The notes under the pieces are model-generated. The model did no database searches. It had not been told where the DNA came from and saw only the letters and a program-made list of their open reading frames with translations. A stretch of 64,000 nucleotides of DNA from Candidatus Pacearchaeota archaeon (lineage in GTDB: Archaea > Nanobdellota > Nanobdellia > Pacearchaeales > GW2011-AR1). Within the stretch, counting starts at the first letter, position 1. Every line of letters starts with the position of its first letter. Positions 8,404-40,718 of this stretch are shown here, piece after piece. The position numbers were made by a program, and so were the translations under genes. The DNA lies in contig JAGVXI010000007.1 in the NCBI GenBank assembly GCA_018303855.1, forward strand, positions 12,143 to 76,142. Direction: 5' to 3'.

Positions 8404-8550
8404 TGAATTACTCCAGATATAATAGGTTAATAAGCTCAATAATAATTCTTATAGTTGGAAGTTGTTAGTGGTTACAGACTTAAAAGATTAAATGGCGGAT
8501 AAATTATCTTTAAAGAAACCTTTAAAAGTCCTTTTTCTTTTTGATGAATC

Positions 8551-8952: not shown

Positions 8953-9178
8953 TGATTAATTATGTTTCTCTATTAATTAAGTGATATTTTATCCAACATC
9001 AGCTTCCATTTAACATGCATTACTTCTATTGATAATTCCCTTAATTAGGGCACTTGTTTTGGGAATTTCCCAGATAGATAATTCTGAAAAGAAAGTGTTA
9101 CGATTAACAGAATTATCTATAATTAAATAAAAAGTGCTTACATTAATTATTTAAAGATACCTTCTTTCCATTATAAAT

Positions 9179-13359: not shown

Positions 13360-16188
13360 ATGACTGAAGAAAATTTTTCAATGGGAGGGGTTGATATTAG
13401 CTTTTCTGCAAAACCTGAACAAGCCTTAGAAAATAAAAAGAGCAGAATATTATCCAGCAAAAAAAGCATAGAAGAAAAAAGATTATGGAGCTTAATCAAA
13501 TTTCTCAAACAAAAAAAAGATTTTGCGGTTTATGTTGCTCTAGCTCTTATCATCTGGTTTGGGATTTATCTTAGGACACTTAATCTTAAAATAAACCCAT
13601 TAACAGGAAAACCATTTTTATGGAATTTTGCAACAAATGATTGGGCTATTGGTATGGAGTTTGACCCTTTTCTTTTCCTGCGATGGATGGAGTATATTGT
13701 TGCACACGGGAGATTAATGGTTATAGATACAATGCGATATGCACCTTTTGGGTATGATACTTCAAAAGAAACAGCGCTTTTTCCATATATGATGGCATGG
13801 ACTCATAAAATACTTGAATTCCTATCATTAACAGACAGCATAACTTATTCTGCTGTAATTTTCCCTGTGATTATGTTTATTCCAACAATTCTTATTCTTT
13901 TTCTGCTTACAAAAAAAGTATTTTACAAAGAGAGCAAAATTACCCAAAATTTGATTGCACTGCTTGCAACTATATTTTTTGCTCTCTTACCAATTTTATT
14001 GTCTAAAACAGGTGCAGGAGTAGCAGATAAAGAAAGTGCTGCTTTGTTATTCATGCTCCTGTCATTTTACTTTTTTTTAGAGGCGTTTAAGTCAGAAAAG
14101 TTCAAAAGAGGCTTGATTTTTGGGATTTTAGCAGGTATTTCAACAGGCTTAATGGCACTGCTTTGGGGCGGTGTTGTGTTTGTGTTTATTCCTGTATCAT
14201 TATCTGTTTTTATCTATTTTCTAATTGGAAAAGTTGAATTAAAAGAGTTTGTCATTTATTTTTCTTGGCTTGCTGTTTCTTTTTTACTCATGTTTAGTTT
14301 TTCCAATAGATACTCACTACAGAATATAACTATACCTGGAAGCCCTGAATCAATGCTAATTATTCTTTTTATTCTAGGCACAAGCTTTTTTTTCTTAAAA
14401 AACAAGAAAACCGCAAGTATAATTAACAGGGTGAAACTTCCTGCACAATTGACTTCAGTTATAATCTCAGGCATTGTACTGGTTATTTTAGCAGTCGTTA
14501 TCTTTGGGCTGAATACTATCATCAGCCCAATAAGTTTTTTAAAGAACTTTTTAGCGAATCCTGCTACAACCAGATTTGGGGTAAGTATTTCAGAAAACAG
14601 ACAACCATATTTTTTAGAAGATTGGGTTGTTTACTTTGGGCCAATTATTGGGGTTCCTTTTTATTTTTACATATTTTTCTTTGGGGTAATCCTTTTATTT
14701 TGGAATATGCTTAAACCTCTTAAGAAAATACACAAGATAACTTTAACCTTGAGCTATTTTATTTTTATCTGGGCAGTTATATTCACAAGATATTCTGAAA
14801 TAGGAGTTTTAAATGGAACGAACGGTGTGAGTTTATTTTTATATGCTTTGGGGCCAATAATTTTCTTTGGGACTATAATTTATACTTATATAAAAATTTA
14901 TAAAGAAAAAGAATTTTTTGAATTTGAAGGCATAAACTTCTCTTACTTATTTTATATTATTCTGTTTACATTCAGCATATTTGCTGCAAGAAGTGCTATA
15001 AGAATATTTTTAGTAGTAGGGGCAATAAGCGTGATTCCTGCTTCTTTTTTCACCATAAAAATATTCCAAAAATACTTTACAGAAAAAGAAGAACTTAACA
15101 AATTTTTTATGGGATTGCTAAGTTTAGCCCTTATTATTTCCCTCTTATTTAGTCTTTATTTTATTTACCAAAAGGATAAAAAAGTTATGCTAGAAGAGCT
15201 TATTACAACTAAATATGTACAACAATGGCAAAGAGCAATGGAGTGGGTTAGGACAAATACGCCGGAAAATGCAGTATTTGCTGCCTGGTGGGATTATGGT
15301 TATTGGCTGCAAACTCGCGGGAGAAGAACTACTATTTTGGATGGTGGAAACTCAATTCCTTATTGGAATCATCTTCTTGGGAAATATGCTCTTACTGGAA
15401 ACGATGAAAACAAAGCATTAGAATTTCTTTACACGCACAATGCAACGCATTTATTAATAGATTTAACAGATATTAAAAAGTATGCTGCAATTTCAGCAAT
15501 TGGCTCAAATGAAGATTATGACAGATTTTCCCAGATTACTCGATTTAACTTAGAAAAAGAAAAAATTTCTAATTTTGGCAATCAGACGCTCTTGCTTTAT
15601 CCTGGAGAATCTCAAACCTATGAGGATATAATATGGAATTTTGATGGGAAAGAGGTTTTGTTTCCAGCATATTTAACTCAGATTAAAGGTTTTGCTTTGA
15701 TTAAAGAAAAAGAAGGAAAAATTGTAAGAGTAGAAATTGTATTATCTGCACAAAACAAAGACTATGCAATTCCCTTAAGGTATGTTTATATAAGTTCTGA
15801 AAATAAACTTATTGATTTAGGTTCTGGATTAGAATCAATGTTTTTTATCTACCCTTCAGTATCACGAGAAGAGGCTATGGTTGATCTTAATATTTTTGGA
15901 GCAGCACTTTATATTCCTAAAAAAGCAAGGGAGTCAAATTTAGTACAACTTTATTTACTGGGGGGTGATTCAGAATATTTTAATCTTGAGCATATAGAAA
16001 GTGACAACATAATTGCAGCATGGAGGGAAGATGTTGCTAATGATATAGGGGAGTTTATTTTTTATGAAAACGATTTTCACGGCCCAATTAAAATTTGGAG
16101 TATTAATTATCCGCAAGATATAAAAACCAATCCAGAGTTTCTAAAAACAGAATTCCCAAGCAGGGGATTAGAATTGGCTAAACTATAA
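13360..16188 (+). CDS. aglB: archaeal oligosaccharyltransferase AglB/STT3, paralogue 2
   Basis: 942 aa with 'AAWWDYGYWLQ'. Same architecture as paralogue 1. The N-terminal 'LIKFLKQKKDFAVY' is shared with paralogue 1. Confidence 0.85.
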   Translation: MTEENFSMGGVDISFSAKPEQALENKKSRILSSKKSIEEKRLWSLIKFLKQKKDFAVYVALALIIWFGIYLRTLNLKINPLTGKPFLWNFATNDWAIGMEFDPFLFLRWMEYIVAHGRLMVIDTMRYAPFGYDTSKETALFPYMMAWTHKILEFLSLTDSITYSAVIFPVIMFIPTILILFLLTKKVFYKESKITQNLIALLATIFFALLPILLSKTGAGVADKESAALLFMLLSFYFFLEAFKSEKFKRGLIFGILAGISTGLMALLWGGVVFVFIPVSLSVFIYFLIGKVELKEFVIYFSWLAVSFLLMFSFSNRYSLQNITIPGSPESMLIILFILGTSFFFLKNKKTASIINRVKLPAQLTSVIISGIVLVILAVVIFGLNTIISPISFLKNFLANPATTRFGVSISENRQPYFLEDWVVYFGPIIGVPFYFYIFFFGVILLFWNMLKPLKKIHKITLTLSYFIFIWAVIFTRYSEIGVLNGTNGVSLFLYALGPIIFFGTIIYTYIKIYKEKEFFEFEGINFSYLFYIILFTFSIFAARSAIRIFLVVGAISVIPASFFTIKIFQKYFTEKEELNKFFMGLLSLALIISLLFSLYFIYQKDKKVMLEELITTKYVQQWQRAMEWVRTNTPENAVFAAWWDYGYWLQTRGRRTTILDGGNSIPYWNHLLGKYALTGNDENKALEFLYTHNATHLLIDLTDIKKYAAISAIGSNEDYDRFSQITRFNLEKEKISNFGNQTLLLYPGESQTYEDIIWNFDGKEVLFPAYLTQIKGFALIKEKEGKIVRVEIVLSAQNKDYAIPLRYVYISSENKLIDLGSGLESMFFIYPSVSREEAMVDLNIFGAALYIPKKARESNLVQLYLLGGDSEYFNLEHIESDNIIAAWREDVANDIGEFIFYENDFHGPIKIWSINYPQDIKTNPEFLKTEFPSRGLELAKL

Positions 16189-23331: not shown

Positions 23332-25170
23332 TTAGCTATCCTTTATCGTCCAAACATCACCAAAAGTAAAAGGGGAAATTTCATCTGTGTCTGGTTCTTG
23401 GGGATTGTAAGTTTTGTCCATTGTATGCAGGATAATTGCTTTTTCCCCCCCAAGAACCATATAGCCATGCCAATAACCTGGGGGAATTTTGATTAATATT
23501 GGATTTGTTTCTCCTATAACAAATGTTTTAAAATCTGCTTCTCTACTGCCCCCTGCTTTTTCTTTAGCAACAACATATTTTATATTTCCTTTAATGCAAG
23601 TTGTATAGTCTGTCTGCTTGCTGTGGCGATGCAAACCTTTGATAACCCCTGGGTATAAAACAGAAACTAGCACTTGCCCAAATTTTCCGTCAAACAATTC
23701 ATCATCTTGCCTCAAAGTTTCAAATAAATATCCCTGCTCATCTGAAAATAGTTTTAATGGTTTTATTCTAATGTCTGAAAAAGTATTTTTAACTTCTGAA
23801 GGCAGATTATTAATAAATGTATTACTATTAGCTGTTGTGCTGTTTATACTCTGTTCTATTTGCGCATATTGTTTAATGACATTATCACCCCCAGTAAATT
23901 CTGGCTCTAAAATTCTTGCTTTTGGGTAATGTACAATAAATCTCCCGCCTCTTGCTAAAAAATCTGTTTCTTTTTTCATTATTTCTGCAGCATGATTCCA
24001 AGCTGCAAGCAAAGCATAGTCAACATTTTTATCATTGTGAAAATGCTCTGGAGAAACAATAGGGATATGTTTTCCTGGGCTAAGTAATCCTTGCTTGTAT
24101 GGTGTAGAATCAGAAATATAATCTAAAATTTCTCTTCCTACATTGCAATAATTTTGAATAATTGTTCCTTTTGAAGCAGCTGCATAACCAACAATTTTTT
24201 TATCTTGAGATTTAAGATGCAACAACAAATTCTGCAATTCTTTTTTCGATTGAGCAGTATTTTCAGCAAACTGAATATACGGATTAATAGTATCAATGCC
24301 TTTTTGTTTTTCTTGCTCTAAAAGCTGCAAAAATCTTTGGGTTTTGGGATAAGTCCCACGTTTGCATGCATAAACTCTCATTGAACCTCCATGAACCCAT
24401 TGTCTTTCTGCATCAAAAATTTCAAAACCATGCATCCTATAAAGATTTGACAAAGAAGTTAAAGAAAAATACCAGATATGCTCATCATATATTTGGTCAT
24501 AAGAAGTTTTTTCCAAAATATCAAGAATATAAGGGTCTTCTGTTATAAACACCCCATTATCATCTAACAGAGCATTCAATCCGCGCATTAAATCATGCAA
24601 ATCAATTATATTTAATGTTACATTTGTTGAAAGAACTACCCTAAACCTGCCTCTTGACAAAACAATACTTTTTGCAAGCTGTTCTGAAAAAAACTGAGTA
24701 ATTGTCTCTATTCCCTGCTGCTGGGCGATTTCTGCAACATTTTGCGATGGTTCAATTCCCAAAACATTTCTTCTATTTAAAAATGATTTTAGCATAATTC
24801 CATCATTGCTACCAATTTCTAAAACCTTTGGATTTCTGTCAAGAAAACGTTGCTCAACTTCGTGTGCGAGATCTGCAAAATGCTCCTGCATTGCCACTGA
24901 AGTGGATGAAAAAAAAGCATAGTGGGTCTTGCCTGTTTCATCTGGAACAATATATTTGGCATAAGGGACGATGTTTATAAGTTGAACCATATTACAATTT
25001 TCACAAAAACCAACATCCATATTATAAACATATTCAACAAAGCCTGGCTTTTGCAATTCAGAGGGCTTAAGAAAAGCATTTGCAACAGGCATTTTGCCGA
25101 ATGAAATAAACTTCACCAAATTTTGAGTTTTACACAAAGGGCAATGCTTTTTTTCATCAAAAACAACCAT
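23332..25170 (-). CDS. fusion protein: TylCIII-like NDP-hexose C-methyltransferase (Zn-binding domain, SAM-MTase and C-MT C-terminal domain) plus a C-terminal RmlC-like cupin (dTDP-sugar 3,5-epimerase/3,4-ketoisomerase fold)
   Basis: N-terminus 'CPLCKTQNL...FCENCNMVQL', 'VLEIGSNDGIML' and 'KIVGYAAASKGTI' make up the C-MT architecture. The last ~190 aa, 'FETLRQDD...KGLHRH...IKIPPGYWHGYMVLG...YNPQEPDTDEISP', match the RmlC/FdtA cupin family. Confidence 0.65.
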   Translation of the reverse strand: MVVFDEKKHCPLCKTQNLVKFISFGKMPVANAFLKPSELQKPGFVEYVYNMDVGFCENCNMVQLINIVPYAKYIVPDETGKTHYAFFSSTSVAMQEHFADLAHEVEQRFLDRNPKVLEIGSNDGIMLKSFLNRRNVLGIEPSQNVAEIAQQQGIETITQFFSEQLAKSIVLSRGRFRVVLSTNVTLNIIDLHDLMRGLNALLDDNGVFITEDPYILDILEKTSYDQIYDEHIWYFSLTSLSNLYRMHGFEIFDAERQWVHGGSMRVYACKRGTYPKTQRFLQLLEQEKQKGIDTINPYIQFAENTAQSKKELQNLLLHLKSQDKKIVGYAAASKGTIIQNYCNVGREILDYISDSTPYKQGLLSPGKHIPIVSPEHFHNDKNVDYALLAAWNHAAEIMKKETDFLARGGRFIVHYPKARILEPEFTGGDNVIKQYAQIEQSINSTTANSNTFINNLPSEVKNTFSDIRIKPLKLFSDEQGYLFETLRQDDELFDGKFGQVLVSVLYPGVIKGLHRHSKQTDYTTCIKGNIKYVVAKEKAGGSREADFKTFVIGETNPILIKIPPGYWHGYMVLGGEKAIILHTMDKTYNPQEPDTDEISPFTFGDVWTIKDS

Positions 25171-25217: not shown

Positions 25218-26189
25218 TTAGTTTAAATCATCTAACTTGATAACTTTTCCAGAAGAAAGATATTTGTTATTAACTTTATATCCCCTATTAGCTAAAATAC
25301 CTAAAGCCTGCGTGTATAAAACAACATTTTTATGGAATAATACGCTTAAAAATGTTCCCAAACAATCATCAATTATGCCAAATCCTTTTGTAAGGGAATT
25401 TGCCACAGGTTTATTTTTGAATAAATCTTCCTTAACATTTTTTCCCTTTTTCCCTAAAGAATCAAAAACATCTAAAATATCTGCAAATCTATATGCTAAT
25501 AATAAACCAGGATTTTCTGCTCTTTTAATAAGTTGCATATTCTCAAGGTTTAATTTAGTTACACCATTGAACTGGCTATCTAAACTTACCTCAAACCCCC
25601 TTGAAAATCCAACATAATCAATACCCCCTATTTCTTCTGGTTTTAAATTTAAATGTCTTGCTAGATTAAATCTTGGAAAACCATCCATATCCAACATGCC
25701 TTTAACTAATCCAGGATATTTTTCAGAAGCTTGGTTTAAATACATGCCAGCATGTTGACCTGCTGTAGGAATATCATAAAAATCAACTCCATGCTGGGTA
25801 ATCCCATCAGTTCTTCTTTGCAGCAAGAATATTTCATCTAAGGAAAGAGGCAATATCTCAGTACTTAGCCCATGAATAGATTCAAAAAGATTTGTTTCAT
25901 TTTTTTCTAAAGCTAATTTAAACTGTCCTAAAAGATATTTGTATTCTGTTACTCCACAATTAATGAGTAACTTATCTTCTGTATAATGCACATCTAATGC
26001 TGTTGGAATCATAGAACTTTTCCATCCTTTATTTTCAACATCCCATTTTGCCTCAGCATAATTTCTTAAAAAATTAGAATGAGTTATTTTGCCACAACTA
26101 TCAATTGCTGATGCATTAACGGCATTTACTGGGCTGTCAAATGTACAAGCATAAAATTCTTTCCTTGGGAAAGAGTTGTTTTTTTTCAT
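25218..26189 (-). CDS. hypothetical protein, member A of an uncharacterised paralogous pair
   Basis: Shares 'KGWKSS', 'QRR' and 'PRFNLARHLNLKPEEI' with 27757..28743 ('PRLFNLETQLDFRKKEI'). I recognise no known family. Confidence 0.55.
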   Translation of the reverse strand: MKKNNSFPRKEFYACTFDSPVNAVNASAIDSCGKITHSNFLRNYAEAKWDVENKGWKSSMIPTALDVHYTEDKLLINCGVTEYKYLLGQFKLALEKNETNLFESIHGLSTEILPLSLDEIFLLQRRTDGITQHGVDFYDIPTAGQHAGMYLNQASEKYPGLVKGMLDMDGFPRFNLARHLNLKPEEIGGIDYVGFSRGFEVSLDSQFNGVTKLNLENMQLIKRAENPGLLLAYRFADILDVFDSLGKKGKNVKEDLFKNKPVANSLTKGFGIIDDCLGTFLSVLFHKNVVLYTQALGILANRGYKVNNKYLSSGKVIKLDDLN

Positions 26190-26262
26190 AACATTTGGTT
26201 AAGAAGTTCATTCTTAAGGATTGTTATACTAAAACCACATAAATCTTTATTAACTTATTACA

Positions 26263-27222
26263 TTGAAGAATTTCATGAGGCTTTTAGTCACAGGAGCTTT
26301 AGGGCATATTGGCTCTAAGCTAATAAGAGAATATGCTAAAAGGCAGGATATAGAGCTAATAAGAATTTTTGACAATATTTCTACGCAAAGATATTGCTCA
26401 TTGTTTAATTTGCCACAAAAGCGCGGGCTAAGATATGAGTTTATTGAAGCAGGCATAGATGACAAAAAAGCTTTAAAACGGGCTATGCAGAAAATTGATG
26501 TGGTTATTCATCTGGCTGCTATAACAGATGCTCCTTCTACTATTGCAACGCCAAAATTAACTCATAAAGTTAATTTCGAAGGAACTAAAAATGTGCTAAT
26601 GGCTGCAATTGATGCTAATGTTAAAAAATTTCTTTTTCCCTCTACAACAAGTGTTTATGGTGAAGCAGAAGGACTTGTAGATGAGAATTCTCCAGAAAAT
26701 ATGTATAAACCGGCTTCTCCTTATGCTGCTACAAAACTTAAGGCTGAAAAATTTATTTTAAAAACTGCAAAAGCAAAAGGGTTTAATGCAAATGTTCTTA
26801 GGATGGGAACTATTTTTGGAACAAGCATTGGCATGAGATTTCATACTGCAATAAATAAATTTTGTTGGTTAGCTGTAATGAACAAGCCATTAACTGTCTG
26901 GGATTCTGCATTAAACAGCATGCGTCCTTATTTGGGATTAAATGACTGCATAAGGGCTTTTTATTTCTTGGAAAAGCATGGAAAACCAGGAGAGCTGTAT
27001 AATGTTGTAACAAGAAATTATTCTATGAAAAATATAATTGAAACAATAAAGCAGTTTGTCCCAAATGTGCAAATTCAAATAACAAAATCTCCATTGCTTA
27101 ATCAAAAACCATATGAAGTCGGCAATGAGAAGATTAAGAAAATTGGATTTGAATTCAAGGACACTCTTTCTGGCGGAATAAGAGCAACTTTGGTGTTGAT
27201 GAAAGGAGTGAGAAGATTTTAG
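26263..27222 (+). CDS. NAD-dependent epimerase/dehydratase (extended SDR)
   Basis: 'LLVTGALGHIGSKL' Rossmann motif and 'YAATKLKAE' (YxxxK). Confidence 0.75.
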   Translation: MKNFMRLLVTGALGHIGSKLIREYAKRQDIELIRIFDNISTQRYCSLFNLPQKRGLRYEFIEAGIDDKKALKRAMQKIDVVIHLAAITDAPSTIATPKLTHKVNFEGTKNVLMAAIDANVKKFLFPSTTSVYGEAEGLVDENSPENMYKPASPYAATKLKAEKFILKTAKAKGFNANVLRMGTIFGTSIGMRFHTAINKFCWLAVMNKPLTVWDSALNSMRPYLGLNDCIRAFYFLEKHGKPGELYNVVTRNYSMKNIIETIKQFVPNVQIQITKSPLLNQKPYEVGNEKIKKIGFEFKDTLSGGIRATLVLMKGVRRF

Positions 27223-27358
27223 TTTTCCTGCATATAACTCTAATTGGAAACAGGCAGAGAAAGTAAGAAATATCTTATATAAATTACTTAATTAATGCAG
27301 GCATATATCTATATCAGGGTGCAATAATCCTTAAAAATGGATAGTTATAAAATGAGGT

Positions 27359-27721
27359 ATGTCAGAAGGTAAACAAATATATAAACCAGAAGAAATACGG
27401 GCAGAAGGAATAGTAAGAGCAATTACAAACAATAACAAGGATAAAAATTTAATAACTTTAAGACTTGAGGATAGAACCAGACATAAAACTAAACCAGAAC
27501 AACCAGAAGAAATTGAAGTTGATTTACCTGTAAAAAGAACAGACAATGATTTTGACTTAATTCCTTTACATTTAGCACTTTTAAACCAAAGAATTGAATA
27601 TCTTAGAACAAAAATGATTCATGACAATGGTGGGAATACAACACATCATTATATAAAAATACATACAGGACCTTTAAGAGGGCAGGAATATAGCAATATA
27701 AAGGAAAGGGCGGGAATATAG
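27359..27721 (+). CDS. hypothetical protein (120 aa)
   Basis: ORF only; hydrophilic, no recognisable motifs. Confidence 0.35.
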   Translation: MSEGKQIYKPEEIRAEGIVRAITNNNKDKNLITLRLEDRTRHKTKPEQPEEIEVDLPVKRTDNDFDLIPLHLALLNQRIEYLRTKMIHDNGGNTTHHYIKIHTGPLRGQEYSNIKERAGI

Positions 27722-27756
27722 TAATATAAAATAAAATTCTTTATTATTTAAAACAA

Positions 27757-28743
27757 ATGAGTATGATAAATAGAAGAGCTAACCCATGGATTGGAGTTTA
27801 TCCATTTGAAGGAAGAGGATTAATAATCAATGATATAAACTTAGGGGTTGAGTTAAACCCGGAAATGGCTGAATATATTGAGAAATTATGGCAGCCAAAA
27901 GCTGAAAAAGGATGGAAAAGTTCCTGGATTGCTTTTATAGATAAATTTTACTGTTCTTCTGCTGATAAAGAAGGTTATCTTGATAATAAAAGTGTTGTTG
28001 TAATTGCTAGCGCAATACCTTTTTATTATGTTGATGGAATAAATAAAGCAATAGAACAAGGCAAAAATTTTGCGCCAGAGCAAGGTTATGTTAATTGTTT
28101 GTCTGTTGGATTTCCAACAGCTACAAAAGATGGAAAAGTTATTTTTCAAAGAAGAGCCCCTGATGTTCATTGCCCAAATATTTTAATCCATGAACCATGC
28201 GGTTATATGACTTCTCTTGCTTTTGCATCAAGAGCAGAATGTGATAAGCCAGAACACGCAAATGATCCTAGATTATTTAATCTTGAAACTCAACTTGACT
28301 TTAGAAAAAAAGAAATTGCAGATACTTTTGGTTTAGAGGCAGAAGCTGTTATTTATGAACCAGCCCAGGATTGCTTAGCTGCCGGTTGGCTCACAACAGA
28401 AATGTATTTTTCAACAACAGGAAAAATAGATGCTTCTGAAAAAGAATTAAAATTACCAGAAAAAGGGGAATTTTTCTTTGTTCCATTTGAATATTTGAAA
28501 GATTTGATAAATAATCAAGGAAGGCTCTCTAAAATTAATCCTGAAGGTTATCGTCCTGAAGACCCAAGAGAAATTCCTTTAATTGATGAATCTTTAGTTG
28601 GATTAATATGGGGTTATGAAAAACTTACAGGAGAAAAACTTGATATAGAAGAAACAGTTGACAGGCTTGGACATGGCGGTCTTGATATTAGGGTTATGGA
28701 TACTTCTTTTAGAAAAAGTTATGTTTTTCCAACAAGGTTTTGA
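27757..28743 (+). CDS. hypothetical protein, member B of the uncharacterised paralogous pair
   Basis: See 25218..26189. Same length class (328 vs 323 aa) and the same shared motifs. Confidence 0.55.
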   Translation: MSMINRRANPWIGVYPFEGRGLIINDINLGVELNPEMAEYIEKLWQPKAEKGWKSSWIAFIDKFYCSSADKEGYLDNKSVVVIASAIPFYYVDGINKAIEQGKNFAPEQGYVNCLSVGFPTATKDGKVIFQRRAPDVHCPNILIHEPCGYMTSLAFASRAECDKPEHANDPRLFNLETQLDFRKKEIADTFGLEAEAVIYEPAQDCLAAGWLTTEMYFSTTGKIDASEKELKLPEKGEFFFVPFEYLKDLINNQGRLSKINPEGYRPEDPREIPLIDESLVGLIWGYEKLTGEKLDIEETVDRLGHGGLDIRVMDTSFRKSYVFPTRF

Positions 28744-28749: not shown

Positions 28750-29658
28750 ATGAATTCTCAAGTAAAAGATGTTTGCATTGAAGCTTTAAGAAGAGTTTAT
28801 AATTTACAGAGAGAATTAATGCAAAAAGAAGTTATTGGAGAAATTATTGCTAAAGGTTCTGGATTAGATAAAGCAATTCGTGGAGATTGGGAATCAGAAG
28901 AAGCTGTGATTAACTTTTTAAAAAAACAGAGATTACCTGCTATGATTATTTCTGAAGAACATGGCCAATTTAGTTTATCAAAAAAACCAGCATATCTTGT
29001 CGTATTAGATGGAATTGATGGAAGCAGTGGGTTAGCAGCAAATCCTAAAGCAAGATGCGGAACAATTATTAGTGTTGCTGACAATTTAAATCCAAAATAT
29101 GATGATTTTATTTTTTCAGGAGTTACTGAATTTTCTCAAGAGAGGATAGCATATGTTTCTAAAGGAGATAAGGTTAGGCTAATAGAACAACCAGGAAAAT
29201 TAGAGAAAACTGCAATTGTTGATAAAATTTTTCCAAAACCTTTGTGTAAAGAAACTAAAATCCATATTGATGATAAACAATTTTATCCCGACTATAAAGA
29301 AGGAATTACAATTAGCATGGATAAAATAACTAAATTAATGAGAAATGTTTTTTCTAATAAATTAAATGGCAAGTTTGAATTAAGTGGCATGGCTTCCACT
29401 TCATCAATGTTCATTGACCTTGTTCTTGGCAAAGTTGATGCTGTTTGCGGGGTTATTGTAAAAGGTGTTTTTGAGCCTCCTGCAGGATATCTTTTGTCTA
29501 AAACCATTGGCGGAGAAGTTTATGGTTTTTCTAATGATAAATGGGAAAAAATTGATAATAAAAAATGGCAAGAATATGGAAAACCAATATCTCCGGTTTT
29601 ATTTGCAGCATCTCCTGAACTTGCAAATGAGTTGATTAGCATTTTAAAATCATCCTAA
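28750..29658 (+). CDS. inositol monophosphatase/FBPase-family (IMPase-like) sugar-phosphate phosphatase
   Basis: 'IISEEHG' and 'VVLDGIDGSSG' resemble the IMPase metal-binding motifs (..EE.. and DPIDGT). Confidence 0.45.
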   Translation: MNSQVKDVCIEALRRVYNLQRELMQKEVIGEIIAKGSGLDKAIRGDWESEEAVINFLKKQRLPAMIISEEHGQFSLSKKPAYLVVLDGIDGSSGLAANPKARCGTIISVADNLNPKYDDFIFSGVTEFSQERIAYVSKGDKVRLIEQPGKLEKTAIVDKIFPKPLCKETKIHIDDKQFYPDYKEGITISMDKITKLMRNVFSNKLNGKFELSGMASTSSMFIDLVLGKVDAVCGVIVKGVFEPPAGYLLSKTIGGEVYGFSNDKWEKIDNKKWQEYGKPISPVLFAASPELANELISILKSS

Positions 29659-29711: not shown

Positions 29712-30716
29712 ATGGAAAACCTGCAAGAAATAAAAAGCATGCAAGGAAAAAAAGTATTAATAACAGGCGGCTTAGGATTTATAGGAAGCAATTTAGCAAA
29801 AAGGCTTGTGGGTGAGGGGGCAGAAGTTACATTATTTGATAAGATTGAAAATGATAGCGATAAGGTTAAAAATATAGCTGATAAATTAAAAATTGTTAAA
29901 GGTGATAATTTAGATAAGCAATTAATTGATGATATTATTAAGGAAAAAGATTACATTTTTCATTTTGCGTGGCAGACTGATTTAAAAGAATCTATGATTC
30001 ATCCTGGCCAGGATATAACCAGGGACATTATCGGCTTAATAATAATGCTTGAATCCTGCAGGAAATATAATAAAAATGTCAAAATAATTTTTGCAAGCAG
30101 TGTTACTGTTGCAGGGGAAATTGAAAAAATACCAGCAGGAGAAGATGTAGCTGAAAACCCCTTATCAATTTATGAAGCAAATAAATTAGCTGCTGAAAAA
30201 TATCTTTATGTTTATTTTAAAAATTATGGACTAAAAACTTGCGTGTTAAGATTGGCTAATGTTTTCGGTGAAGGACAAAGAATTGATAACCCCAATAGGG
30301 GGGTTTTAAATTTTATGATAGGCAGGGCTTTGCGTGGAGAACCTTTAACTGTTTATGGTAATGGAGAGTTTATCAGGGATTATACTTATGTTCAAAACTA
30401 TATTGATGCGTTTATTTTAGCTGCTCTTTCTGATAAAACAGACGGAGAATTTTATGTATTAGGAAGCGGAAAAGGATTAACCATGAATGAAGTGGTTCAT
30501 AAAATAAAAGAGATTACTAGAGAAATTACTGGAAAAGATGTTCTTATAGAACAAATTCCTTTTCCAGAATCAACCCATAAAATAGATAAAAGAAATTTTA
30601 TTGCAGATTACAGTAAATTCAAACAGGCAACTGGCTGGCAGCCAAAAATAGATTTTGAGTGGGGGTTAAGGAAAACTATTGAATTCTACTACATAAATTC
30701 TTTAAAAACAGCATAA
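29712..30716 (+). CDS. NAD-dependent epimerase/dehydratase (extended SDR)
   Basis: 'VLITGGLGFIGSNL' and 'YEANKLAAE'. Confidence 0.75.
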   Translation: MENLQEIKSMQGKKVLITGGLGFIGSNLAKRLVGEGAEVTLFDKIENDSDKVKNIADKLKIVKGDNLDKQLIDDIIKEKDYIFHFAWQTDLKESMIHPGQDITRDIIGLIIMLESCRKYNKNVKIIFASSVTVAGEIEKIPAGEDVAENPLSIYEANKLAAEKYLYVYFKNYGLKTCVLRLANVFGEGQRIDNPNRGVLNFMIGRALRGEPLTVYGNGEFIRDYTYVQNYIDAFILAALSDKTDGEFYVLGSGKGLTMNEVVHKIKEITREITGKDVLIEQIPFPESTHKIDKRNFIADYSKFKQATGWQPKIDFEWGLRKTIEFYYINSLKTA

Positions 30717-30728: not shown

Positions 30729-31826
30729 ATGGGTAGTTATAAAAAGGAGTATGAAGAGGTTTTTGAAGGTAAAACCATACTAATTACAGGCGGATTAGGA
30801 TTTATTGGGAGTAATCTTGCACATAAGTTAGTTGAACTAAATCCAAAAAAGGTTATTATTGCTGATGCACTTGTTAACGGATTAGGCGGAAGCATTGAGA
30901 ATATAAAAGAGATAAAGGATAAACTAGAAATTTATGCTGGTTTAGAAGGAGACATAAGGAACATACAAAAAATTAAAGAACTTGTTTCTCAAGCAGATTA
31001 TGTTTTTAATTTAGCTGGTTCAATTAGGCATACAGGGCATAATAGAGAAGACCTTATTTTTGATTCTGAAATAAACTTAATTTGTCAAACATTATTCTTA
31101 GAAGCATGCAGGCAATGCATGATTGAAAATCCTAAAAAAAACCTATCAATTATTTATGCAGGAACAAGAGACCAATACGGAAAAGTTAGCTTTATGGATT
31201 TGCCATTAAAAGAAGATTTTGTGCCAAAAACATTTACAGATTATCAATCTATTAGCAAGGGAGCGGCAGAAGCTCACCACATAATGCTACACTCCAGTTT
31301 AAAAGAACAAGGAATTGATGGCATTAAAATCACTTCTGTAAGAATAACCAATACTTATGGCCCAAGACAATCGCTAGATTGTGGGGGAGCTGTGCCAACT
31401 TTTATTAAAAAAATTCTTAGCGGAGGAAAGATAGAACTTTGGGGTGGCGGAGAAGTATTAAGAGACTTTAACCATGTTGATGATGTTGTTGATGCATTGA
31501 TATTATTAGCAGCATCTGATAAAACAGGAGGGCAGATTTACAATTTGGGATGCTGCATTGGAAAAGAAGGAATGAATACCCCGGTAGGAGGCAATCTCAC
31601 AACAATCATGAATCTAGCGCATCTTATTAGAGATATTTCTGGCTTGGGTGATGTAACTGCAATTCCTTATCCAAAAGAAAGAGCAAGCATTGAACCAGGA
31701 CATTGTTGTTCTGATATTTCAAAGATTGCCAGACTTGGATGGATTCCAAAATATAGCTTGAGAAAAGGATTAGAAGAAACAATTAGATTTTATAAAGAAA
31801 AAACATTAAATAATAAAGATTATTGA
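30729..31826 (+). CDS. NAD-dependent epimerase/dehydratase (extended SDR)
   Basis: 'ILITGGLGFIGSNL' and 'YQSISKGAAE'. Confidence 0.75.
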   Translation: MGSYKKEYEEVFEGKTILITGGLGFIGSNLAHKLVELNPKKVIIADALVNGLGGSIENIKEIKDKLEIYAGLEGDIRNIQKIKELVSQADYVFNLAGSIRHTGHNREDLIFDSEINLICQTLFLEACRQCMIENPKKNLSIIYAGTRDQYGKVSFMDLPLKEDFVPKTFTDYQSISKGAAEAHHIMLHSSLKEQGIDGIKITSVRITNTYGPRQSLDCGGAVPTFIKKILSGGKIELWGGGEVLRDFNHVDDVVDALILLAASDKTGGQIYNLGCCIGKEGMNTPVGGNLTTIMNLAHLIRDISGLGDVTAIPYPKERASIEPGHCCSDISKIARLGWIPKYSLRKGLEETIRFYKEKTLNNKDY

Positions 31827-32027: not shown

Positions 32028-33131
32028 ATGATACCAATTGGCAATTTAAGAAGAAAATATCTTGTTCGGAAAAATGAGTTTGACTCAGCTATTTTACGTG
32101 TGCTTGATAGTGGGTGGTTTATTCTTGGAAAAGAAGTTGAAGAATTTGAAAAAGAATTCGCAGCATATTGCGGAAAAAATTATGGTATTGGAGTTGGTAG
32201 TGGGTTTGATGCTTTGTTGCTTGCATTAAAAGCACTTGAGATTGGAGATGGGGATGAAATAATAACTGTGCCACACACTGCCATACCAACAGTTGCAGCA
32301 ATTATAGCTAGCGGCGCAATTCCAAAATTTGTAGATGTAGGTGAAGATTGCTTGATGGATGTTAACAAAATTAAAGAAGTTATTACAGAAAAAACAAAAG
32401 CGATTATGCCTGTTCATTTATACGGGCAAGCTTGCGACATGGAACAAATATTAGAAATTGCTAACCAACACAACCTTTTTATTATTGAAGATTGCGCACA
32501 GGCTCATGGAGCAGAATACAAAGGAAAAAGAGTCCCAATTAGCACTCTTGGATGCTTTAGTTTTTATCCAAGCAAAAACATGGGGGCATTTGGAGACGGA
32601 GGCATGATTGTGACAGATAGTGAAGCAATTAGCACCAGGCTAAAAATGCTTAGAAATTACGGGCAAGCAACAAGATATCACGCTAAGATGCAAGGGTATA
32701 ATACAAGGCTTGATGAATTACATGCAACAATACTTAGAGTTCAATTGAAATATCTTAATGAAGATAATGAGATAAGAAAACAAATTGCATTAAGATATAA
32801 TTTGCTATTAAAAGAAATAGTGACTATACCAAATGTAAACCAAAACAAAAAACATGTTTATCATCTTTATGTTATAAAAACAGACAAAAGAGACAGATTA
32901 AAAGAAAAGCTAAATGAACTTGGAATTGGAACAGAAATTCATTACCCTATCCCATTACATTTGCAAGAAGCTTACAAATATTTAGGATATAAAAATGGGG
33001 ATTTTGCACAAACAGAAAAAGCAGCAAAAGAGATTCTTTCAATCCCAATATATCCTGAATTAACAGATACTGAAATAGAAACTGTTGCTCAAAAAATCAA
33101 GGAAGTTATGCAAAATATGGCTGGTCCTTGA
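32028..33131 (+). CDS. DegT/DnrJ/EryC1/StrS-family PLP-dependent sugar aminotransferase
   Basis: 'WFILGKEVEEFEKEFAAYCG', 'ITVPHTAIPTVAAI' and 'FSFYPSKNMGAFGDGG' are typical of the family. Confidence 0.8.
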   Translation: MIPIGNLRRKYLVRKNEFDSAILRVLDSGWFILGKEVEEFEKEFAAYCGKNYGIGVGSGFDALLLALKALEIGDGDEIITVPHTAIPTVAAIIASGAIPKFVDVGEDCLMDVNKIKEVITEKTKAIMPVHLYGQACDMEQILEIANQHNLFIIEDCAQAHGAEYKGKRVPISTLGCFSFYPSKNMGAFGDGGMIVTDSEAISTRLKMLRNYGQATRYHAKMQGYNTRLDELHATILRVQLKYLNEDNEIRKQIALRYNLLLKEIVTIPNVNQNKKHVYHLYVIKTDKRDRLKEKLNELGIGTEIHYPIPLHLQEAYKYLGYKNGDFAQTEKAAKEILSIPIYPELTDTEIETVAQKIKEVMQNMAGP

Positions 33132-33852
33132 TTCCTTCTTTTTCTTTTAAAAATTGGCTTGAATGAAATAAGCTTTCAAATGTTCCTGCATCTGACCAAA
33201 AACCCTTGATAATACCATAAAAACATTTTCCTGATTTTACATAATAATCAATTGCATCTGTTATCTCTAATTCTCCTCGGGCAGAAGGTTTAAGCACATC
33301 TATGATGTTAAAGATATTATTATCAAACATATACAATCCTGTCATTGCAAGATTTGATTTTGGGTCACGTGGCTTTTCTTCAACATAAACAACTTTATCT
33401 CCTTCTGTTAATGCACAGCCAAATCTTCTAGCATCTTGCATTGAAACCTCTTTTAAAAAAATCTTAGCTCCCTCTTGCTGTTTTTCAAATTCTTCTACAA
33501 AAGGTTTTACATCATCTTCAAAGATATTATCCCCTAAAACAACAACTACTTTATCATCTCTAACAAAATTTCGCGCTAGTTTTAACGCATGTGCAATTCC
33601 ACCTGAACCTTCTTGCACATCATAAGCAAGATCTACTCCGAATTCTTTCCCACTTCCTAAAAGATTTAAAAAATCTCCTGCGTGCCCTTCCCCGGAAATA
33701 ATTAATATATCTTTAATGCCAGCTTTTGCTAAAAGTTGCAAGGGATAATAAATCATGGGTTTATTATAAACAGGAAGCAGGTGCTTATTAGTGACTTTTG
33801 TACAGGGGTATAGCCTTGAACCAGTGCCTCCTGCTAAAATTACTCCTTTCAT
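33106..33852 (-). CDS. rmlA: glucose-1-phosphate thymidylyltransferase-like sugar nucleotidyltransferase (short RmlA form)
   Basis: 'MKGVILAGGTGSRLYPCTKVTNKHLLPVYNKPMIYYPL'. Confidence 0.8.
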   Translation of the reverse strand: MKGVILAGGTGSRLYPCTKVTNKHLLPVYNKPMIYYPLQLLAKAGIKDILIISGEGHAGDFLNLLGSGKEFGVDLAYDVQEGSGGIAHALKLARNFVRDDKVVVVLGDNIFEDDVKPFVEEFEKQQEGAKIFLKEVSMQDARRFGCALTEGDKVVYVEEKPRDPKSNLAMTGLYMFDNNIFNIIDVLKPSARGELEITDAIDYYVKSGKCFYGIIKGFWSDAGTFESLFHSSQFLKEKEGIKDQPYFA

Positions 33853-34847
33853 GATGTCCTCCTACCAGGCATGTTTTTTAATGGCTGCCACCACCATTTA
33901 TTATTCTTATACCATTCTATTGTTAAGCTAAGTGCTTTATCAAAATTAAATCGCGGTTTCCAACCAAGCGCCTTTATTTTTTCACAATTTAAAGAATACC
34001 TTAAATCATGCCCCTTTCTATCTTCAACTAACTGAATAGATTCCTCTCCGGCCCCCATTTTTTCAAGTATTAATTTTGTTAAACCTATATTAGTAATTTC
34101 ATTTCCTCCCCCTATATTGTATACCCCATTAACCTGCCCATTATGAATAATAAAATCAATTGCTTCACAATTATCCTGAACAAAAATCCAATCTCTAACA
34201 TTCTTTCCTGTTCCATAAAGGGGGACTTTTTTTTGTTCGATTAAATTTGTAATAAACAAAGGAACTACTTTTTCTGGAAAGTGATAGGGCCCAAAATTAT
34301 TACTTGACCTTGTAATGATAATTGGCTGTTTAAATGTTTTAATATTGCCCAAACAAATCATTTCTGCAGCAGCTTTTGATGCACTATAAGGTGAAGAGGG
34401 ATTCAAAACATCTTGCTCTTTGCTCGAAGCATCGCCGAAATTAAGCGAACCATATACCTCATCTGTAGATATTTGCACAAATAAACCTGCTTTTTTTTGC
34501 CTGGCAGCTTCTAAAATTGAATGAGTCCCTAAAACATTTGTTTGAATAAAAATCTGCGGTTCTTTTATAGAATTATCAACATGTGATTCTGCAGCAAAAT
34601 TGACTATAACATCTCCTTCTTGGATTATGTTCCTCATAAAATCGTAATTTGCAATATCTGCTTGGATAAAAGCATAATTGCTTTGATTCTCAATTTGTTT
34701 TAAATTTTCCTGGTTTCCAGAATAAGTAAGCTTGTCTATGTTAATAAACTGATAATTAGGGTATTTATTAACCATTAGAATTAGAAAATTACTTCCTATG
34801 AACCCGCATCCCCCTGCAACTATAACTCTTTTTGCCTCTTTGCTCAT
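33849..34847 (-). CDS. rmlB: dTDP-glucose 4,6-dehydratase
   Basis: 'RVIVAGGCGFIGSNF' and 'YSASKAAAE'. It overlaps rmlA by 4 nt, as in an operon. Confidence 0.8.
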   Translation of the reverse strand: MSKEAKRVIVAGGCGFIGSNFLILMVNKYPNYQFINIDKLTYSGNQENLKQIENQSNYAFIQADIANYDFMRNIIQEGDVIVNFAAESHVDNSIKEPQIFIQTNVLGTHSILEAARQKKAGLFVQISTDEVYGSLNFGDASSKEQDVLNPSSPYSASKAAAEMICLGNIKTFKQPIIITRSSNNFGPYHFPEKVVPLFITNLIEQKKVPLYGTGKNVRDWIFVQDNCEAIDFIIHNGQVNGVYNIGGGNEITNIGLTKLILEKMGAGEESIQLVEDRKGHDLRYSLNCEKIKALGWKPRFNFDKALSLTIEWYKNNKWWWQPLKNMPGRRTS

Positions 34848-38684: not shown

Positions 38685-39308
38685 TTACCTATTTAATAAA
38701 GTATCTAAATCTCTTTTCAGTTGCGTGGGATTTTTGTAAAGAATTGTGTCCATACCAAGTTGCTTTGCTGGTTTTAGATTTTCAATTTTATCATCAATAA
38801 AAATGACTTCTGAAGGTTGTGCATCCAAATCTCTTAAAACAAATTCATATGCTTTAATATCTGGTTTCATTAAACCAATTTCACACGAAATATAATTCTT
38901 GTCAAACAAATTAAAAACCCTATTTTTGGCTTTATTAAATTCAACTATTTCTTTTTCGGTATTAGTAAAAGAAACAACCTCGTATTTTTTTAAGTTCATT
39001 AAACCTCTTATAATCTCTAAAACCTCTTTAAATATCTTAAAATTTTTTTCATAAACGTCTATATGTTTAGAAAGGAGTTCTTGAGGAGAAGGTTTTTTCA
39101 AATTAAGTCTTTCTAGTGTTTTGGTATAAAATTCTAAAAGTGTCATTTTTCCAATAGGAACAAGGCTATAAATATCTAAATTAGCTTTTTTTAATTCCTC
39201 AAAATTTATTCCTAACAATTCAGAAATTTGTTTGTTAATAATTAACATTGTCTCTGGAACTAAAACACCCCCTAAATCTAATAAGATGTATTTTATCTTG
39301 CTATTCAT
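38685..39308 (-). CDS. HAD-superfamily hydrolase (subfamily IA-like)
   Basis: N-terminal 'ILLDLGGVLV' and C-terminal 'VIFIDDKIENL'. Confidence 0.6.
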   Translation of the reverse strand: MNSKIKYILLDLGGVLVPETMLIINKQISELLGINFEELKKANLDIYSLVPIGKMTLLEFYTKTLERLNLKKPSPQELLSKHIDVYEKNFKIFKEVLEIIRGLMNLKKYEVVSFTNTEKEIVEFNKAKNRVFNLFDKNYISCEIGLMKPDIKAYEFVLRDLDAQPSEVIFIDDKIENLKPAKQLGMDTILYKNPTQLKRDLDTLLNR

Positions 39309-39321
39309 TTTAATCTAAATT

Positions 39322-39786
39322 TTACTTACTTTCCTTTATTTCAATTGGCATTAATCCTGTTAAAGTAGATGATGACTGCAGTTTTTCTCCAAGACTATCA
39401 ACTATTTTTATATTAAATCTCTCGCACACTTCTTGTTCAGGAATCCTGTCATGTTTTCTAAAACTGCATGCAAATATATCTGGCTTAACCATCTCAAGGG
39501 TTTTAGAAACAGTCCTATCTTCATCTATAGAAAGAACAACTTCATCAACTAACTTTAAAGCTTTTATAATTTCTATTCTTTCATTTTGAGGCATAAAAGG
39601 TTTTCCTTTTTTTAATTTGGCTTGATTATCATTGTTTATAATAGCTATCAATCTACCATTTTCTCCAACCAGGTTTTTTGCTAATTTAAATAATTGCAAA
39701 TGGCCAATATGCAATGGGTCAAAATATCCAGAGACTGCAACTACAAGATCTTTTTTTGTTTTTTTATTTTCCATCTTATGGCACAC
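39322..39786 (-). CDS. cytidylyltransferase-fold nucleotidyltransferase resembling HldE domain II (heptose-1-phosphate adenylyltransferase)
   Basis: 'VAVSGYFDPLHIGHLQLF' carries the (H/T)xGH motif, and 'LIAIINNDNQ...KGKPFMPQNERIEIIKALKLVDEVV' follows. Confidence 0.55.
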   Translation of the reverse strand: MCHKMENKKTKKDLVVAVSGYFDPLHIGHLQLFKLAKNLVGENGRLIAIINNDNQAKLKKGKPFMPQNERIEIIKALKLVDEVVLSIDEDRTVSKTLEMVKPDIFACSFRKHDRIPEQEVCERFNIKIVDSLGEKLQSSSTLTGLMPIEIKESK

Positions 39787-39794
39787 AATTTTGA

Positions 39795-40718
39795 CTAAAT
39801 AAATTTTTCTAAATTTATTTCCTCTTTTCTAAAAAGTATTTTATCCATTTCTTTTATGCAGTCTTCATGAGTAATTTTGTCAAATTCTTCTTTGGATTTA
39901 ACAGGAATATGCCCTGCAACATCTCCGCTCCCTTTACATCTCTGCAGATATTCTTTTCCTATAGTAATCAAAATGCCATCATAACCCTGAGATATTGTAT
40001 GGGGTACTCCTCTGTTTTTATACTTATCTCCTAATTCCTTTTGGACATTTGATAAAAATGAAACAACTCCTTTAACATCTTCTTTATGAAAAACAAGATG
40101 AGAGAATGGAAAAGAAGGCATTACAGATATATCTTTTGTTTTTTTGCAGGAAATTTTCTCTGCAGCATCAAATCCATATGTTTTTCCTAGTATATCATAC
40201 CCATTTCTGAATGTTGTTAAATGCCAGTGTTCATGAGCTGGGATGGTTGCTCCAAAACCAGGGCTATTATGAAAAATTTCAAAACCTGTTTTATCTGAAA
40301 AATTTACAAAATAATTAAGTTCACTTTCAAGATTATCTATTTTCTGGGTTGTATACATTGGACGTTCTTTTTCAGTAATAGCCAAAGAAAAACCTTCTAT
40401 AATAGGGAATTTATTTATTGTGAATATATAATCTAAAACCTTTTCTTCAGTAATAAGGTTCATTAGTTGGTTATTTTTTGCTGATAAAGATGCATTGCAT
40501 AAACTGCAGTTTGAAGATTCTTTTATATTTTCCTGGCTGGTGGGTCTATTAAAACGATTTTCATTATGTATTATGCCAAAAACATATCCTGGGTTAGCAT
40601 TGCTTTCAACAATCCTAATATTTGGCTTGTAGGCATCTTTTGGGATGCCTTCTACTTCTGCAGCTTTGTGCCATCTTTCTAATACCTTTTGTCTAAGTGT
40701 TGAAAATTTTTCTGACAT
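39795..40718 (-). CDS. putative GalT-like HIT-superfamily nucleotidyltransferase/phosphorylase (tentative)
   Basis: 'CSLC' (CxxC) sits upstream of 'PAHEHWH' (HxHxH-like), as in the GalT/Ap4A-phosphorylase branch of HIT. There is no other support. Confidence 0.3.
   Translation of the reverse strand: MSEKFSTLRQKVLERWHKAAEVEGIPKDAYKPNIRIVESNANPGYVFGIIHNENRFNRPTSQENIKESSNCSLCNASLSAKNNQLMNLITEEKVLDYIFTINKFPIIEGFSLAITEKERPMYTTQKIDNLESELNYFVNFSDKTGFEIFHNSPGFGATIPAHEHWHLTTFRNGYDILGKTYGFDAAEKISCKKTKDISVMPSFPFSHLVFHKEDVKGVVSFLSNVQKELGDKYKNRGVPHTISQGYDGILITIGKEYLQRCKGSGDVAGHIPVKSKEEFDKITHEDCIKEMDKILFRKEEINLEKFI

Follow-up and report, generated by a model that had tools for sequence, protein, structure and literature searches.

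The DNA analysed here is a 64,000-nucleotide stretch of Candidatus Pacearchaeota archaeon contig JAGVXI010000007.1 (hereafter the window, with a base composition of about 31% G+C), and its subject is a divergent pair of conserved genes, referred to as paralogues A and B. Both lie on the strands and at the positions at which an earlier sequence-only reading of this DNA had placed them, and encode proteins of the length given there.

25218..26189, minus strand: paralogue A, 323 amino acids (aa); NUDT22-like two-domain Nudix-fold protein in which all three acidic Nudix-box positions are lost
27757..28743, plus strand: paralogue B, 328 aa; two-domain protein with a NUDT22-like Nudix fold, in which the Nudix box is partly degenerate

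A and B form part of a NUDT22-like branch of the Nudix superfamily that has so far lacked a family model, and do not represent a new fold. AlphaFold2 models of the two proteins were built from family alignments (A: pLDDT 92.1, pTM 0.91; B: pLDDT 93.6, pTM 0.91) and compared with the PDB using Foldseek. Human NUDT22 was the top match for both models (E = 2.8e-11 to 5.5e-9), with 302-321 aligned columns for chains of 282-301 residues and TM-scores of 0.48-0.64; its best match to A reached E = 2.8e-11 at a TM-score of 0.56-0.61 and its best match to B likewise E = 2.8e-11. The matches next in rank were type-1 isopentenyl diphosphate (IPP) isomerase (IDI1), NUDT12, GDP-mannose mannosyl hydrolase (Gmm) and generic MutT-like proteins, all at E>=6.5e-6 and with TM-scores of at most 0.37 over the query. 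The Nudix structures matched by both models also include MutT, RppH, CoA pyrophosphatase and others, which places A and B in the Nudix superfamily at the level of the fold. The NUDT22 two-domain architecture is also present, as its N-terminal domain and Nudix domain superpose on the predicted models over their full length. A and B each consist of an N-terminal domain, a Nudix domain whose Nudix box is interrupted by a long insert, and a family-specific C-terminal subdomain of about 70 residues, the last extending from approximately residue 255 to the end and carrying the motif LIDES in B and IIDDC...G in A. The N-terminal domain of NUDT22 reportedly binds nucleotide.

Profile comparisons point in the same direction. 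PF00293 does not match A or B at E<=1, and the sole PDB chain touched by the B profile is NUDT22, weakly and through its first Nudix strands (hmmsearch E = 1.3). Direct hhalign comparison with NUDT22, using a query sequence checked to be identical to 5lor_A, gave weak matches for the B profile (E = 0.0046) and the A profile (E = 0.068). The profile of clade C2, an intermediate clade of the same family, matched NUDT22 with 92% probability (E = 6e-7, 192 columns) and with the Nudix helices aligned. When run against 1.84 billion protein representatives, the B profile additionally retrieved the NUDT22-like protein P0148 (E = 6.6e-4), which itself carries PF00293. The sequence-only reading had recognised no family and had proposed a new enzyme family, a proposal that the Foldseek and C2-profile results do not support.

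Searches of Pfam-A, NCBIfam and PDB sequences yielded no match for A or B, and their homologue clusters carry no Pfam domain. There are 30 such clusters for A (39-54% identity) and 64 for B (41-68% identity for the full-length ones), every one of them unnamed or annotated as 'hypothetical', and all organism-labelled homologues come from Pacearchaeota, Nanoarchaeota, Woesearchaeota or unclassified archaeal metagenome-assembled genomes (MAGs). Proteins identical to the two in the window are on record from a Candidatus Pacearchaeota MAG. An exhaustive HMMER scan of the same 1.84 billion representatives with the B profile found only 64 proteins at E<=1e-3; these are representatives at 50% clustering and nearly all from DPANN archaea. 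The family is thus very small, almost confined to DPANN archaea and without a model in Pfam or NCBIfam. One contig labelled Candidatus Omnitrophota bacterium (locus L011, DATJPO010000055.1) encodes the archaeal gene module described below (methyltransferase-cupin, SDR2, SDR1, SDR3 and B) at 56-70% identity to the window, and is probably mis-binned because a bacterial label here sits on an archaeal module.

The paralogy of A and B is real but not demonstrable from the two sequences alone. Direct BLASTP returned a single 22-residue match around the motif KGWKSS (E = 0.026), and a semi-global alignment scored z = 2.2 against shuffled sequences, 13 of 300 shuffles scoring as well, so that the pairwise evidence is marginal. 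Homology emerges at the profile level. Comparison of the B-family with the A-family alignment by hhalign gave 96.7% probability and E = 4.3e-10 over 273 columns at 15% identity, and the B-family hidden Markov model retrieved the A-family proteins P0141 (2.4e-8) and P0151 (9e-4) from the 1.84 billion proteins. The full-length sequence P0115 bridges the two families in plain BLASTP, matching B at 1e-23 and A at 1.9e-17, as does the C2 profile in hhalign, with E = 8.6e-54 for B and E = 5.6e-23 for A. We regard this family-level profile evidence as decisive in indicating that A and B are homologous, and it bears out their earlier description as duplicates. A is the outgroup to clades B, C1 and C2, which supports the ancient duplication suggested before.

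In the family-guided alignment A and B share 16% identity over 299 columns; the 20-25% quoted in the sequence-only reading was too high, measured values being 15-16%. The collinear motifs named there fared unevenly. KGWKSS and QRR are in register between the two proteins. PRFNL/PRLFNL and KxEI lie 11-13 alignment columns out of register; they were rejected as evidence of homology and are chance resemblances because of this displacement.

27907..27924, plus strand: KGWKSS motif of B (residues 51-56) in the N-terminal domain, in register with A
26013..26030, minus strand: KGWKSS motif of A (residues 54-59), in register with B

For residue comparison, 36 B, 13 C1, 10 C2 and 26 A sequences (85 family sequences) were aligned with NUDT22. 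The Nudix hydrolase signature GX5EX7REUXEEXGU, with its three metal-binding Glu residues, is kept by C2 and present in neither A nor B. In NUDT22 the triad positions are E189, D192 and E193, which we take to be catalytic on the basis of the Nudix consensus.

28309..28335, plus strand: B residues 185-193 (K-E-I-A-D-T-F-G-L), aligned as a remnant of the Nudix-box helix REUXEEXGU
25644..25670, minus strand: A residues 174-182 (R-F-N-L-A-R-H-L-N), at the position of the Nudix-box helix in the family-guided alignment and without an acidic residue

The B segment aligns to Q-E189-I-C-D192-E193-V-N-L of NUDT22 and to C2 motifs such as R-E-F-V-E-E-T-G-L (REFVEETGL, P0119). Of the 36 B-family sequences, 30 have Glu at the first position (the other 6 have Q, M, Y, A or D) and 19 an acidic residue at the second, while none is acidic at the third, where 28 have Thr; the corresponding residues of B itself are E186, D189 (variable) and T190. 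None of the 26 A sequences has an acidic residue at any of the three positions, which are occupied by N/H, R/K (25/26) and H/N/A/S, respectively (N175, R178 and H179 in the window). Acidic residues are found at the three positions in 8/10, 9/10 and 9/10 of the C2 sequences and in 1/13, 12/13 and 0/13 of the C1 sequences.

The same map, which had been suggested as a way of locating an active site, highlights other polar positions (B/A numbering). R133/R126 is Arg in every sequence and in NUDT22, and D125/D118 is Asp, also in NUDT22, with Glu in 3/85. His is found at H138/H133 in 75/85 sequences, including 26/26 A. E215/D204 is kept in B, C1 and A, corresponds to E222 of NUDT22 and is Asn in C2, and D277/D274, located within the C-terminal subdomain, is Asp in 77/85. 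His138/133, Glu215/Asp204, Asp277/274 and Arg133/126 form an alternative polar set conserved across the clades, and represent a candidate site. In the A family, 17 polar or charged residues are invariant across 26 sequences at 40-54% identity, among them R9, K91, E111, R126, H133, D139, Q145, E200, S202, D204, Q206, D255, D274 and H286, and it is because of this large invariant set that A looks like an enzyme. The two patterns are complementary: C2 has an intact box but no E215, and B, C1 and A combine a degenerate box with E215/D204, which hints that the catalytic centre has shifted.

The two genes are embedded in a nucleotide-sugar biosynthesis cluster containing several short-chain dehydrogenase/reductase (SDR) genes. 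The components surrounding A and B in the window are as follows.

23332..25170, minus strand: sugar C-methyltransferase fused to a cupin (RmlC/FdtA-like); Pfam Methyltransf_13/23/14 and dTDP_sugar_isom
26263..27222, plus strand: SDR1, extended SDR of the epimerase/dehydratase type; Pfam Epimerase 3.4e-40, best PDB sequence match 6vo6
27359..27721, plus strand: open reading frame (ORF) of 120 aa separating SDR1 from B; without a match in Pfam, NCBIfam or PDB sequences
28750..29658, plus strand: IMPase/FBPase-like phosphatase; below cut-off in both Pfam (FBPase N-terminal domain, 9.2e-6) and NCBIfam (FBPase/IMPase, 4.2e-12)
29712..30716, plus strand: SDR2, conserved module partner; best NCBIfam match 4,6-dehydratase-like, below cut-off
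30729..31826, plus strand: SDR3, conserved module partner
32028..33131, plus strand: DegT-type nucleotide-sugar aminotransferase, closest to C-3 aminotransferases
33106..33852, minus strand: RmlA, glucose-1-phosphate thymidylyltransferase-like; NCBIfam rmlA 7.8e-71, below equivalog cut-off
33849..34847, minus strand: RmlB, dTDP-glucose 4,6-dehydratase; NCBIfam TIGR01181 5e-130, above cut-off

The neighbours described earlier, namely an SDR epimerase/dehydratase between A and B and an IMPase-like gene after B, could be confirmed, the latter with matches below curated cut-offs; it starts 7 bp downstream of B. SDR1 is a conserved partner that usually adjoins A or B. The matches of SDR1, SDR2 and SDR3 tied none of them to one particular reaction. 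The 120-aa ORF was considered as a member of the system and rejected, no counterpart being found in any other compared locus. The methyltransferase part of the fusion matches the PDB sequences of KijD1 (5t64, 2.9e-87), TcaB9 (~1e-83) and a D-mycarose 3-C-methyltransferase entry (4rv9, 2.6e-77). Its cupin part matches RmlC-like PDB chains at ~1e-7, contains an H-x-H motif (GLHRHSK) resembling that of FdtA/QdtA and is 53% identical to the cupin of locus L022, which has an unmarked FdtA Pfam match. The fused cupin may therefore be a 3,4-ketoisomerase instead of a 3,5-epimerase. The aminotransferase is closest to QdtB (5.6e-99), the transaminase 2oga (1.3e-91) and WbpE (~2e-72), compared with ~1e-56 or weaker for perosamine synthetase and ArnB-type 4-aminotransferases.

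Synteny was compared across about 18 distinct loci from MAGs and metagenomes. The methyltransferase-cupin fusion (split into two genes in L022), SDR1, SDR2 and DegT recur with an A, B or C family member in most loci, SDR3 is found in nearly all loci having this recurrent module and RmlA/RmlB in many. A conserved deoxy-sugar module thus accompanies the family in archaeal MAGs. This synteny with nucleotide-sugar genes, together with the fold match to a UDP-sugar pyrophosphatase, supports the role in sugar-nucleotide metabolism that had been proposed from the window alone. Some loci encode only B (L003/L010, L008 and L013), some only A (L020, L030 and L031) and others both (the window, L001, L007 and L015); C2 occurs with A in L016, C1 with A in L022 and a split C1 with B in L014. 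Two family members often lie side by side, as in the window, L001, L007, L015, L016, L022 and L014. The A-only loci, the B-only loci and those with both (window, L001 and L015) contain the same methyltransferase-cupin fusion, SDR1, SDR2 and DegT, and all of them except L030 also SDR3. A and B fill the same slot beside SDR1 and SDR2. In L001, L007 and L016 the gene order is rmlB-rmlA-A, with A directly downstream of rmlA. Family members outside sugar clusters are found in L012 and, as a C2 protein, in L018.

An IMPase-like gene adjoins B or C2 in the window, L007 (2408-3316), L008 (10941-11813) and L016 (7984-8895), in two orientations and with homologues at 41-48% identity, which amounts to only 4 of the ~18 loci. 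Beside it, L007 (1761-2399) and L008 (11793-12446) share a conserved ORF of about 215 aa. The aminotransferases fall into different length and identity classes. Those beside the A-only modules, and one of two in L001, are 408-412 aa long and 40-45% identical to the window DegT, that of L015 (A and B) is ~367 aa long with 42% identity, and those beside the B-only modules and in L014 are 365 aa long with 58-61% identity. This suggests two module variants; an NCBIfam scan did not separate the two DegT subtypes. The association of A-only and B-only modules with different aminotransferase subtypes is compatible with two substrate specificities for A and B, as had been proposed, but is no proof of them.

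Several loci show additional features. In L014 a C1-type paralogue directly upstream of B is split into two overlapping ORFs (8978-9340 and 9337-9924), either through a frameshift or pseudogene formation or through an assembly error. The L030 module is interrupted by genes of mobile elements or defence systems, namely a DDE transposase, GmrSD_N/HNH and an EcoRI-type methylase (3546-8759). In L031 (1-5161 and 15185-16447), phosphonate-type genes adjoin the module, specifically, a phosphoenolpyruvate (PEP) mutase-cytidylyltransferase fusion, a thiamine pyrophosphate (TPP) decarboxylase, an iron-dependent alcohol dehydrogenase (Fe-ADH) and a CDP-alcohol transferase, and a RuBisCO large-subunit gene lies near the module as well.

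The window as a whole is a large protein-glycosylation island. Besides the module, it encodes two STT3/AglB proteins, a family 4 glycosyltransferase (GT4) acting as initiating transferase, flippases, several GT2/GT4 enzymes, methyltransferases, a B12-radical-SAM enzyme and a GDP-mannose dehydratase with an aminotransferase. The STT3/AglB-like oligosaccharyltransferases are tandem paralogues of 997 and 942 aa (10365-13358 and 13360-16188, plus strand), followed by the GT4 initiating transferase, a flippase, GT2s and methyltransferases. A 916-aa multidomain protein (44919-47669, plus strand) combines two nucleotidyltransferase domains with a P-loop kinase and a histidine-phosphatase domain; giant fusions of a comparable kind are found in L003 (1184 aa) and L016 (740 aa), and such proteins may be assembly lines for sugar-phosphate activation. 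A HAD hydrolase, a cytidylyltransferase-like gene and DUF4922 are encoded at 38685-40718 (minus strand), and a PAPS-reductase-like gene with a sulfatase at 50437-52889. Both groups may contribute further nucleotide-sugar or sulfation chemistry.

While the homology, the fold, the conserved gene module and the loss of metal-binding Glu residues from the Nudix box are shown, the function of A and B is inferred. We tend to discount classical Mg-dependent Nudix hydrolysis as the shared function because A lacks the triad entirely and B lacks most of it, because A-only and B-only modules are equivalent and because other polar residues are conserved; A can be the sole family member of a module though it lacks any Nudix metal site. 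We tentatively hypothesize that A and B are nucleoside diphosphate (NDP)-sugar enzymes with a remodelled active site that carry out a non-hydrolytic step, such as 2,3-dehydration of the type catalyzed by EvaA. Both would bind an NDP-hexose intermediate of their module, which comprises a 4,6-dehydratase-type SDR and/or RmlB, the KijD1/TcaB9-like C-methyltransferase-cupin fusion, a C-3-type aminotransferase and further SDRs. Their shared job would be an acid/base transformation on the sugar of an NDP-4-keto-6-deoxyhexose, with C-2 deoxygenation through 2,3-dehydration as the leading candidate step. EvaA, the second known nucleotide-sugar enzyme with a Nudix fold, carries out this reaction on dTDP-4-keto-6-deoxyglucose and yields the 3,4-diketo-2,6-dideoxy sugar. 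Where both are present, they might form a heteromer or act on two different intermediates.

The gene context fits such a step. A deoxy/amino/C-methyl sugar neighbourhood (RmlA, RmlB, C-3 methyltransferase, aminotransferase and reductases) is found with no other 2,3-dehydratase, as there is no PF03559 gene among the window ORFs scanned or in the annotated loci. KijD1, TcaB9 and the 4rv9 methyltransferase act on 2-deoxy-4-keto sugars. The module can presumably be mapped onto the Eva pathway, with EvaB corresponding to the C-3 aminotransferase, EvaC to the C-3 methyltransferase, EvaD to the fused cupin and EvaE to an SDR reductase. In a canonical plasmid cluster (L024) the gene order is 2,3-dehydratase, Gfo/Idh/MocA reductase and C-methyltransferase, and in L030 a Gfo/Idh/MocA gene lies between SDR2 and the methyltransferase, near A.

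A number of observations weigh against 2,3-dehydration. The A, B and C-clade proteins have no PF03559 match at E<=1, hhalign against EvaA and six annotated 2,3-dehydratases gave E = 0.4 for the B family, 0.68 for the A family and 0.093 for C2, and EvaA is missing from the top 50 Foldseek matches of either model. Membership in the EvaA family was consequently rejected by Pfam, hhalign and fold ranking alike. The cupin, if a 3,4-ketoisomerase, may feed the C-3 aminotransferase a 3-keto substrate without any 2,3-dehydratase. The B slot of L016 is held by a C2 protein with an intact Nudix box, and four loci link the IMPase-like phosphatase to B or C2; both favour hydrolysis. Finally, the proposed scheme assigns no role to the IMPase-like protein or to two of the three SDRs.

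The non-hydrolytic reading is slightly favoured over a NUDT22-like pyrophosphatase, an explanation that is possible but in our view doubtful. Here B, and perhaps A via a non-canonical site, would cleave (d)NDP-sugar to nucleoside monophosphate (NMP) and sugar-1-phosphate, much as NUDT22 hydrolyses UDP-glucose and UDP-galactose to UMP and hexose-1-phosphate with Mg, the IMPase-like enzyme would then dephosphorylate the product, and the outcome would be a free sugar, a sugar-1-phosphate for re-activation with another nucleotide or a salvaged nucleotide. The plant route from GDP-L-galactose to L-galactose, through VTC2 and then the IMPase-family enzyme VTC4, resembles this scheme. In its favour, the nearest protein of known function, judged by both structure and profile, is a UDP-glucose/galactose pyrophosphatase (PMC10101856) that also lacks a conventional Nudix box (PMC5688067), most B proteins retain the first Glu and about half an acidic second position, and C2, with its full triad, takes the B slot beside the IMPase-like gene and A in L016. 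The adjoining of IMPase-like genes to B or C2 in two orientations fits as well, yet such genes are limited to 4/~18 loci. However, the third Glu is absent in 36/36 B sequences and the first is replaced in 6, and A has 0/3 Glu although A-only modules otherwise equal B-only ones. No free-sugar user such as a NeuB-type synthase was seen among the window ORFs scanned, and a nonulosonic-acid-type use of the hydrolase product was rejected for that reason.

A and B could also be accessory NDP-sugar binders without catalytic activity, serving as a partner subunit, as a chaperone of labile 4-keto intermediates or as a regulator of RmlA or the pathway, which we consider unlikely. Degenerate Nudix domains with non-hydrolytic roles are known from NrtR, the NUDT9-homology domain of TRPM2 and NUDT21, and the degenerate Nudix box, the frequent adjacency of the paralogues and the position of A directly downstream of rmlB-rmlA in three loci would suit such a role. 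The 17 invariant polar or charged residues of A are, however, a pattern typical of an enzyme, and domain scans and models revealed no DNA-binding or other effector domain in A or B. Less probable still is another carbanion-type reaction, in which the Nudix scaffold would serve an epimerase or keto-isomerase with Cys/Glu or His/acid chemistry resembling that of IDI. Both models have type-1 IPP isomerase as their second-best fold match (E = 6.5e-6 to 5e-4), and B contains the motif H138-C139...H145-E146-P-C148-G, with E146 in 35/36, C148 in 32/36 and H138 in 32/36 sequences. On the other side, TM-scores to IDI are only 0.33-0.37, the Cys residues and E146 are not conserved in A, C1 and C2, and the module already has a cupin for epimerisation or isomerisation.

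Returning to non-hydrolytic NDP-sugar chemistry, a broader and rather speculative proposal is that, with A and B, Nudix-fold enzymes for nucleotide-sugar carbon chemistry, most likely 2,3-dehydration, evolved independently a second time. NUDT22-type pyrophosphatases would have given rise to this class by losing the Glu triad and acquiring a His/Asp/Glu site taken partly from the new C-terminal subdomain, and the class would supply 2-deoxy or branched amino sugars for DPANN glycans. Should A or B provide the missing catalytic step of the module, they would constitute a new sequence family for a nucleotide-sugar reaction (2-deoxygenation or NDP-sugar cleavage), show the re-tooling of a Nudix pyrophosphatase scaffold after loss of its metal site and open a way to study the unusual C-methylated amino sugars apparently made by DPANN archaea. 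To our knowledge, the surface glycans of these archaea have hardly been characterised. For human NUDT22, until now an outlier on its own among the Nudix enzymes, prokaryotic relatives with informative gene context would then be available. If A and B are ordinary NDP-sugar pyrophosphatases, the result would be a routine family extension. With their fold known and their function a matter of inference, they are a tractable candidate for the unassigned step of an archaeal branched amino-sugar pathway.

Among known systems, NUDT22 is the closest. It is a UDP-glucose/UDP-galactose pyrophosphatase (PMC10101856) with crystal structures under PDB IDs 5lf9, 5lor and 5lou, and has been described as being without a conventional Nudix box (PMC5688067). 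A and B resemble it in the full-length match of N-terminal and Nudix domains (E~3e-11, TM 0.48-0.64), in the first Nudix strands (pattern LSVGF..T.DGKVIFQRR compared with LGVGAALATADDFLVFLRR), in an insert that separates the PGG loop from the Nudix helix and in the conservation of NUDT22 residues D131, R139 and E222. They differ from it in their low identity (10-15%) and in the helix acids, all three of which (E189, D192 and E193) are present in NUDT22 compared with 1-2 in B and 0 in A. In addition, the archaeal proteins carry the conserved C-terminal subdomain of ~70 residues (LIDES or IIDDC...G), have His138/133 where NUDT22 has Glu145, and are encoded in a deoxy-sugar biosynthesis module and not in a context of pyrimidine salvage.

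The EvaA/TylX3-type 2,3-dehydratases (PF03559; PDB ID: 4j7g) are likewise members of the Nudix superfamily that do not act as classical hydrolases. EvaA consists of two duplicated domains, one with an active pocket and one with a remnant (PMC8987622), a duplication that parallels the A/B pair. These enzymes act on dTDP-4-keto-6-deoxyglucose, and their genes have similar neighbours, namely RmlA/RmlB, TylC3/KijD1-type C-methyltransferases, aminotransferases and reductases (PMC8987622; L024). However, EvaA is a single chain of ~470 aa with two Nudix-like domains, whereas A and B are separate genes for proteins of ~325 aa with one Nudix domain each, and they are at most functional analogues of EvaA within the same superfamily, not members of the PF03559 family. 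Type-1 IPP isomerase (IDI) and GDP-mannose mannosyl hydrolase (Gmm), next in rank at E = 6.5e-6 to 1e-4, share the Nudix fold with A and B but reach TM-scores of only 0.23-0.37, lack the N-terminal NUDT22-type domain and have catalytic residues that clades A, B and C do not retain throughout. They illustrate that the Nudix scaffold supports proton-transfer chemistry, as in IDI, or attack at the sugar C1 with a reduced Glu set, as in Gmm.

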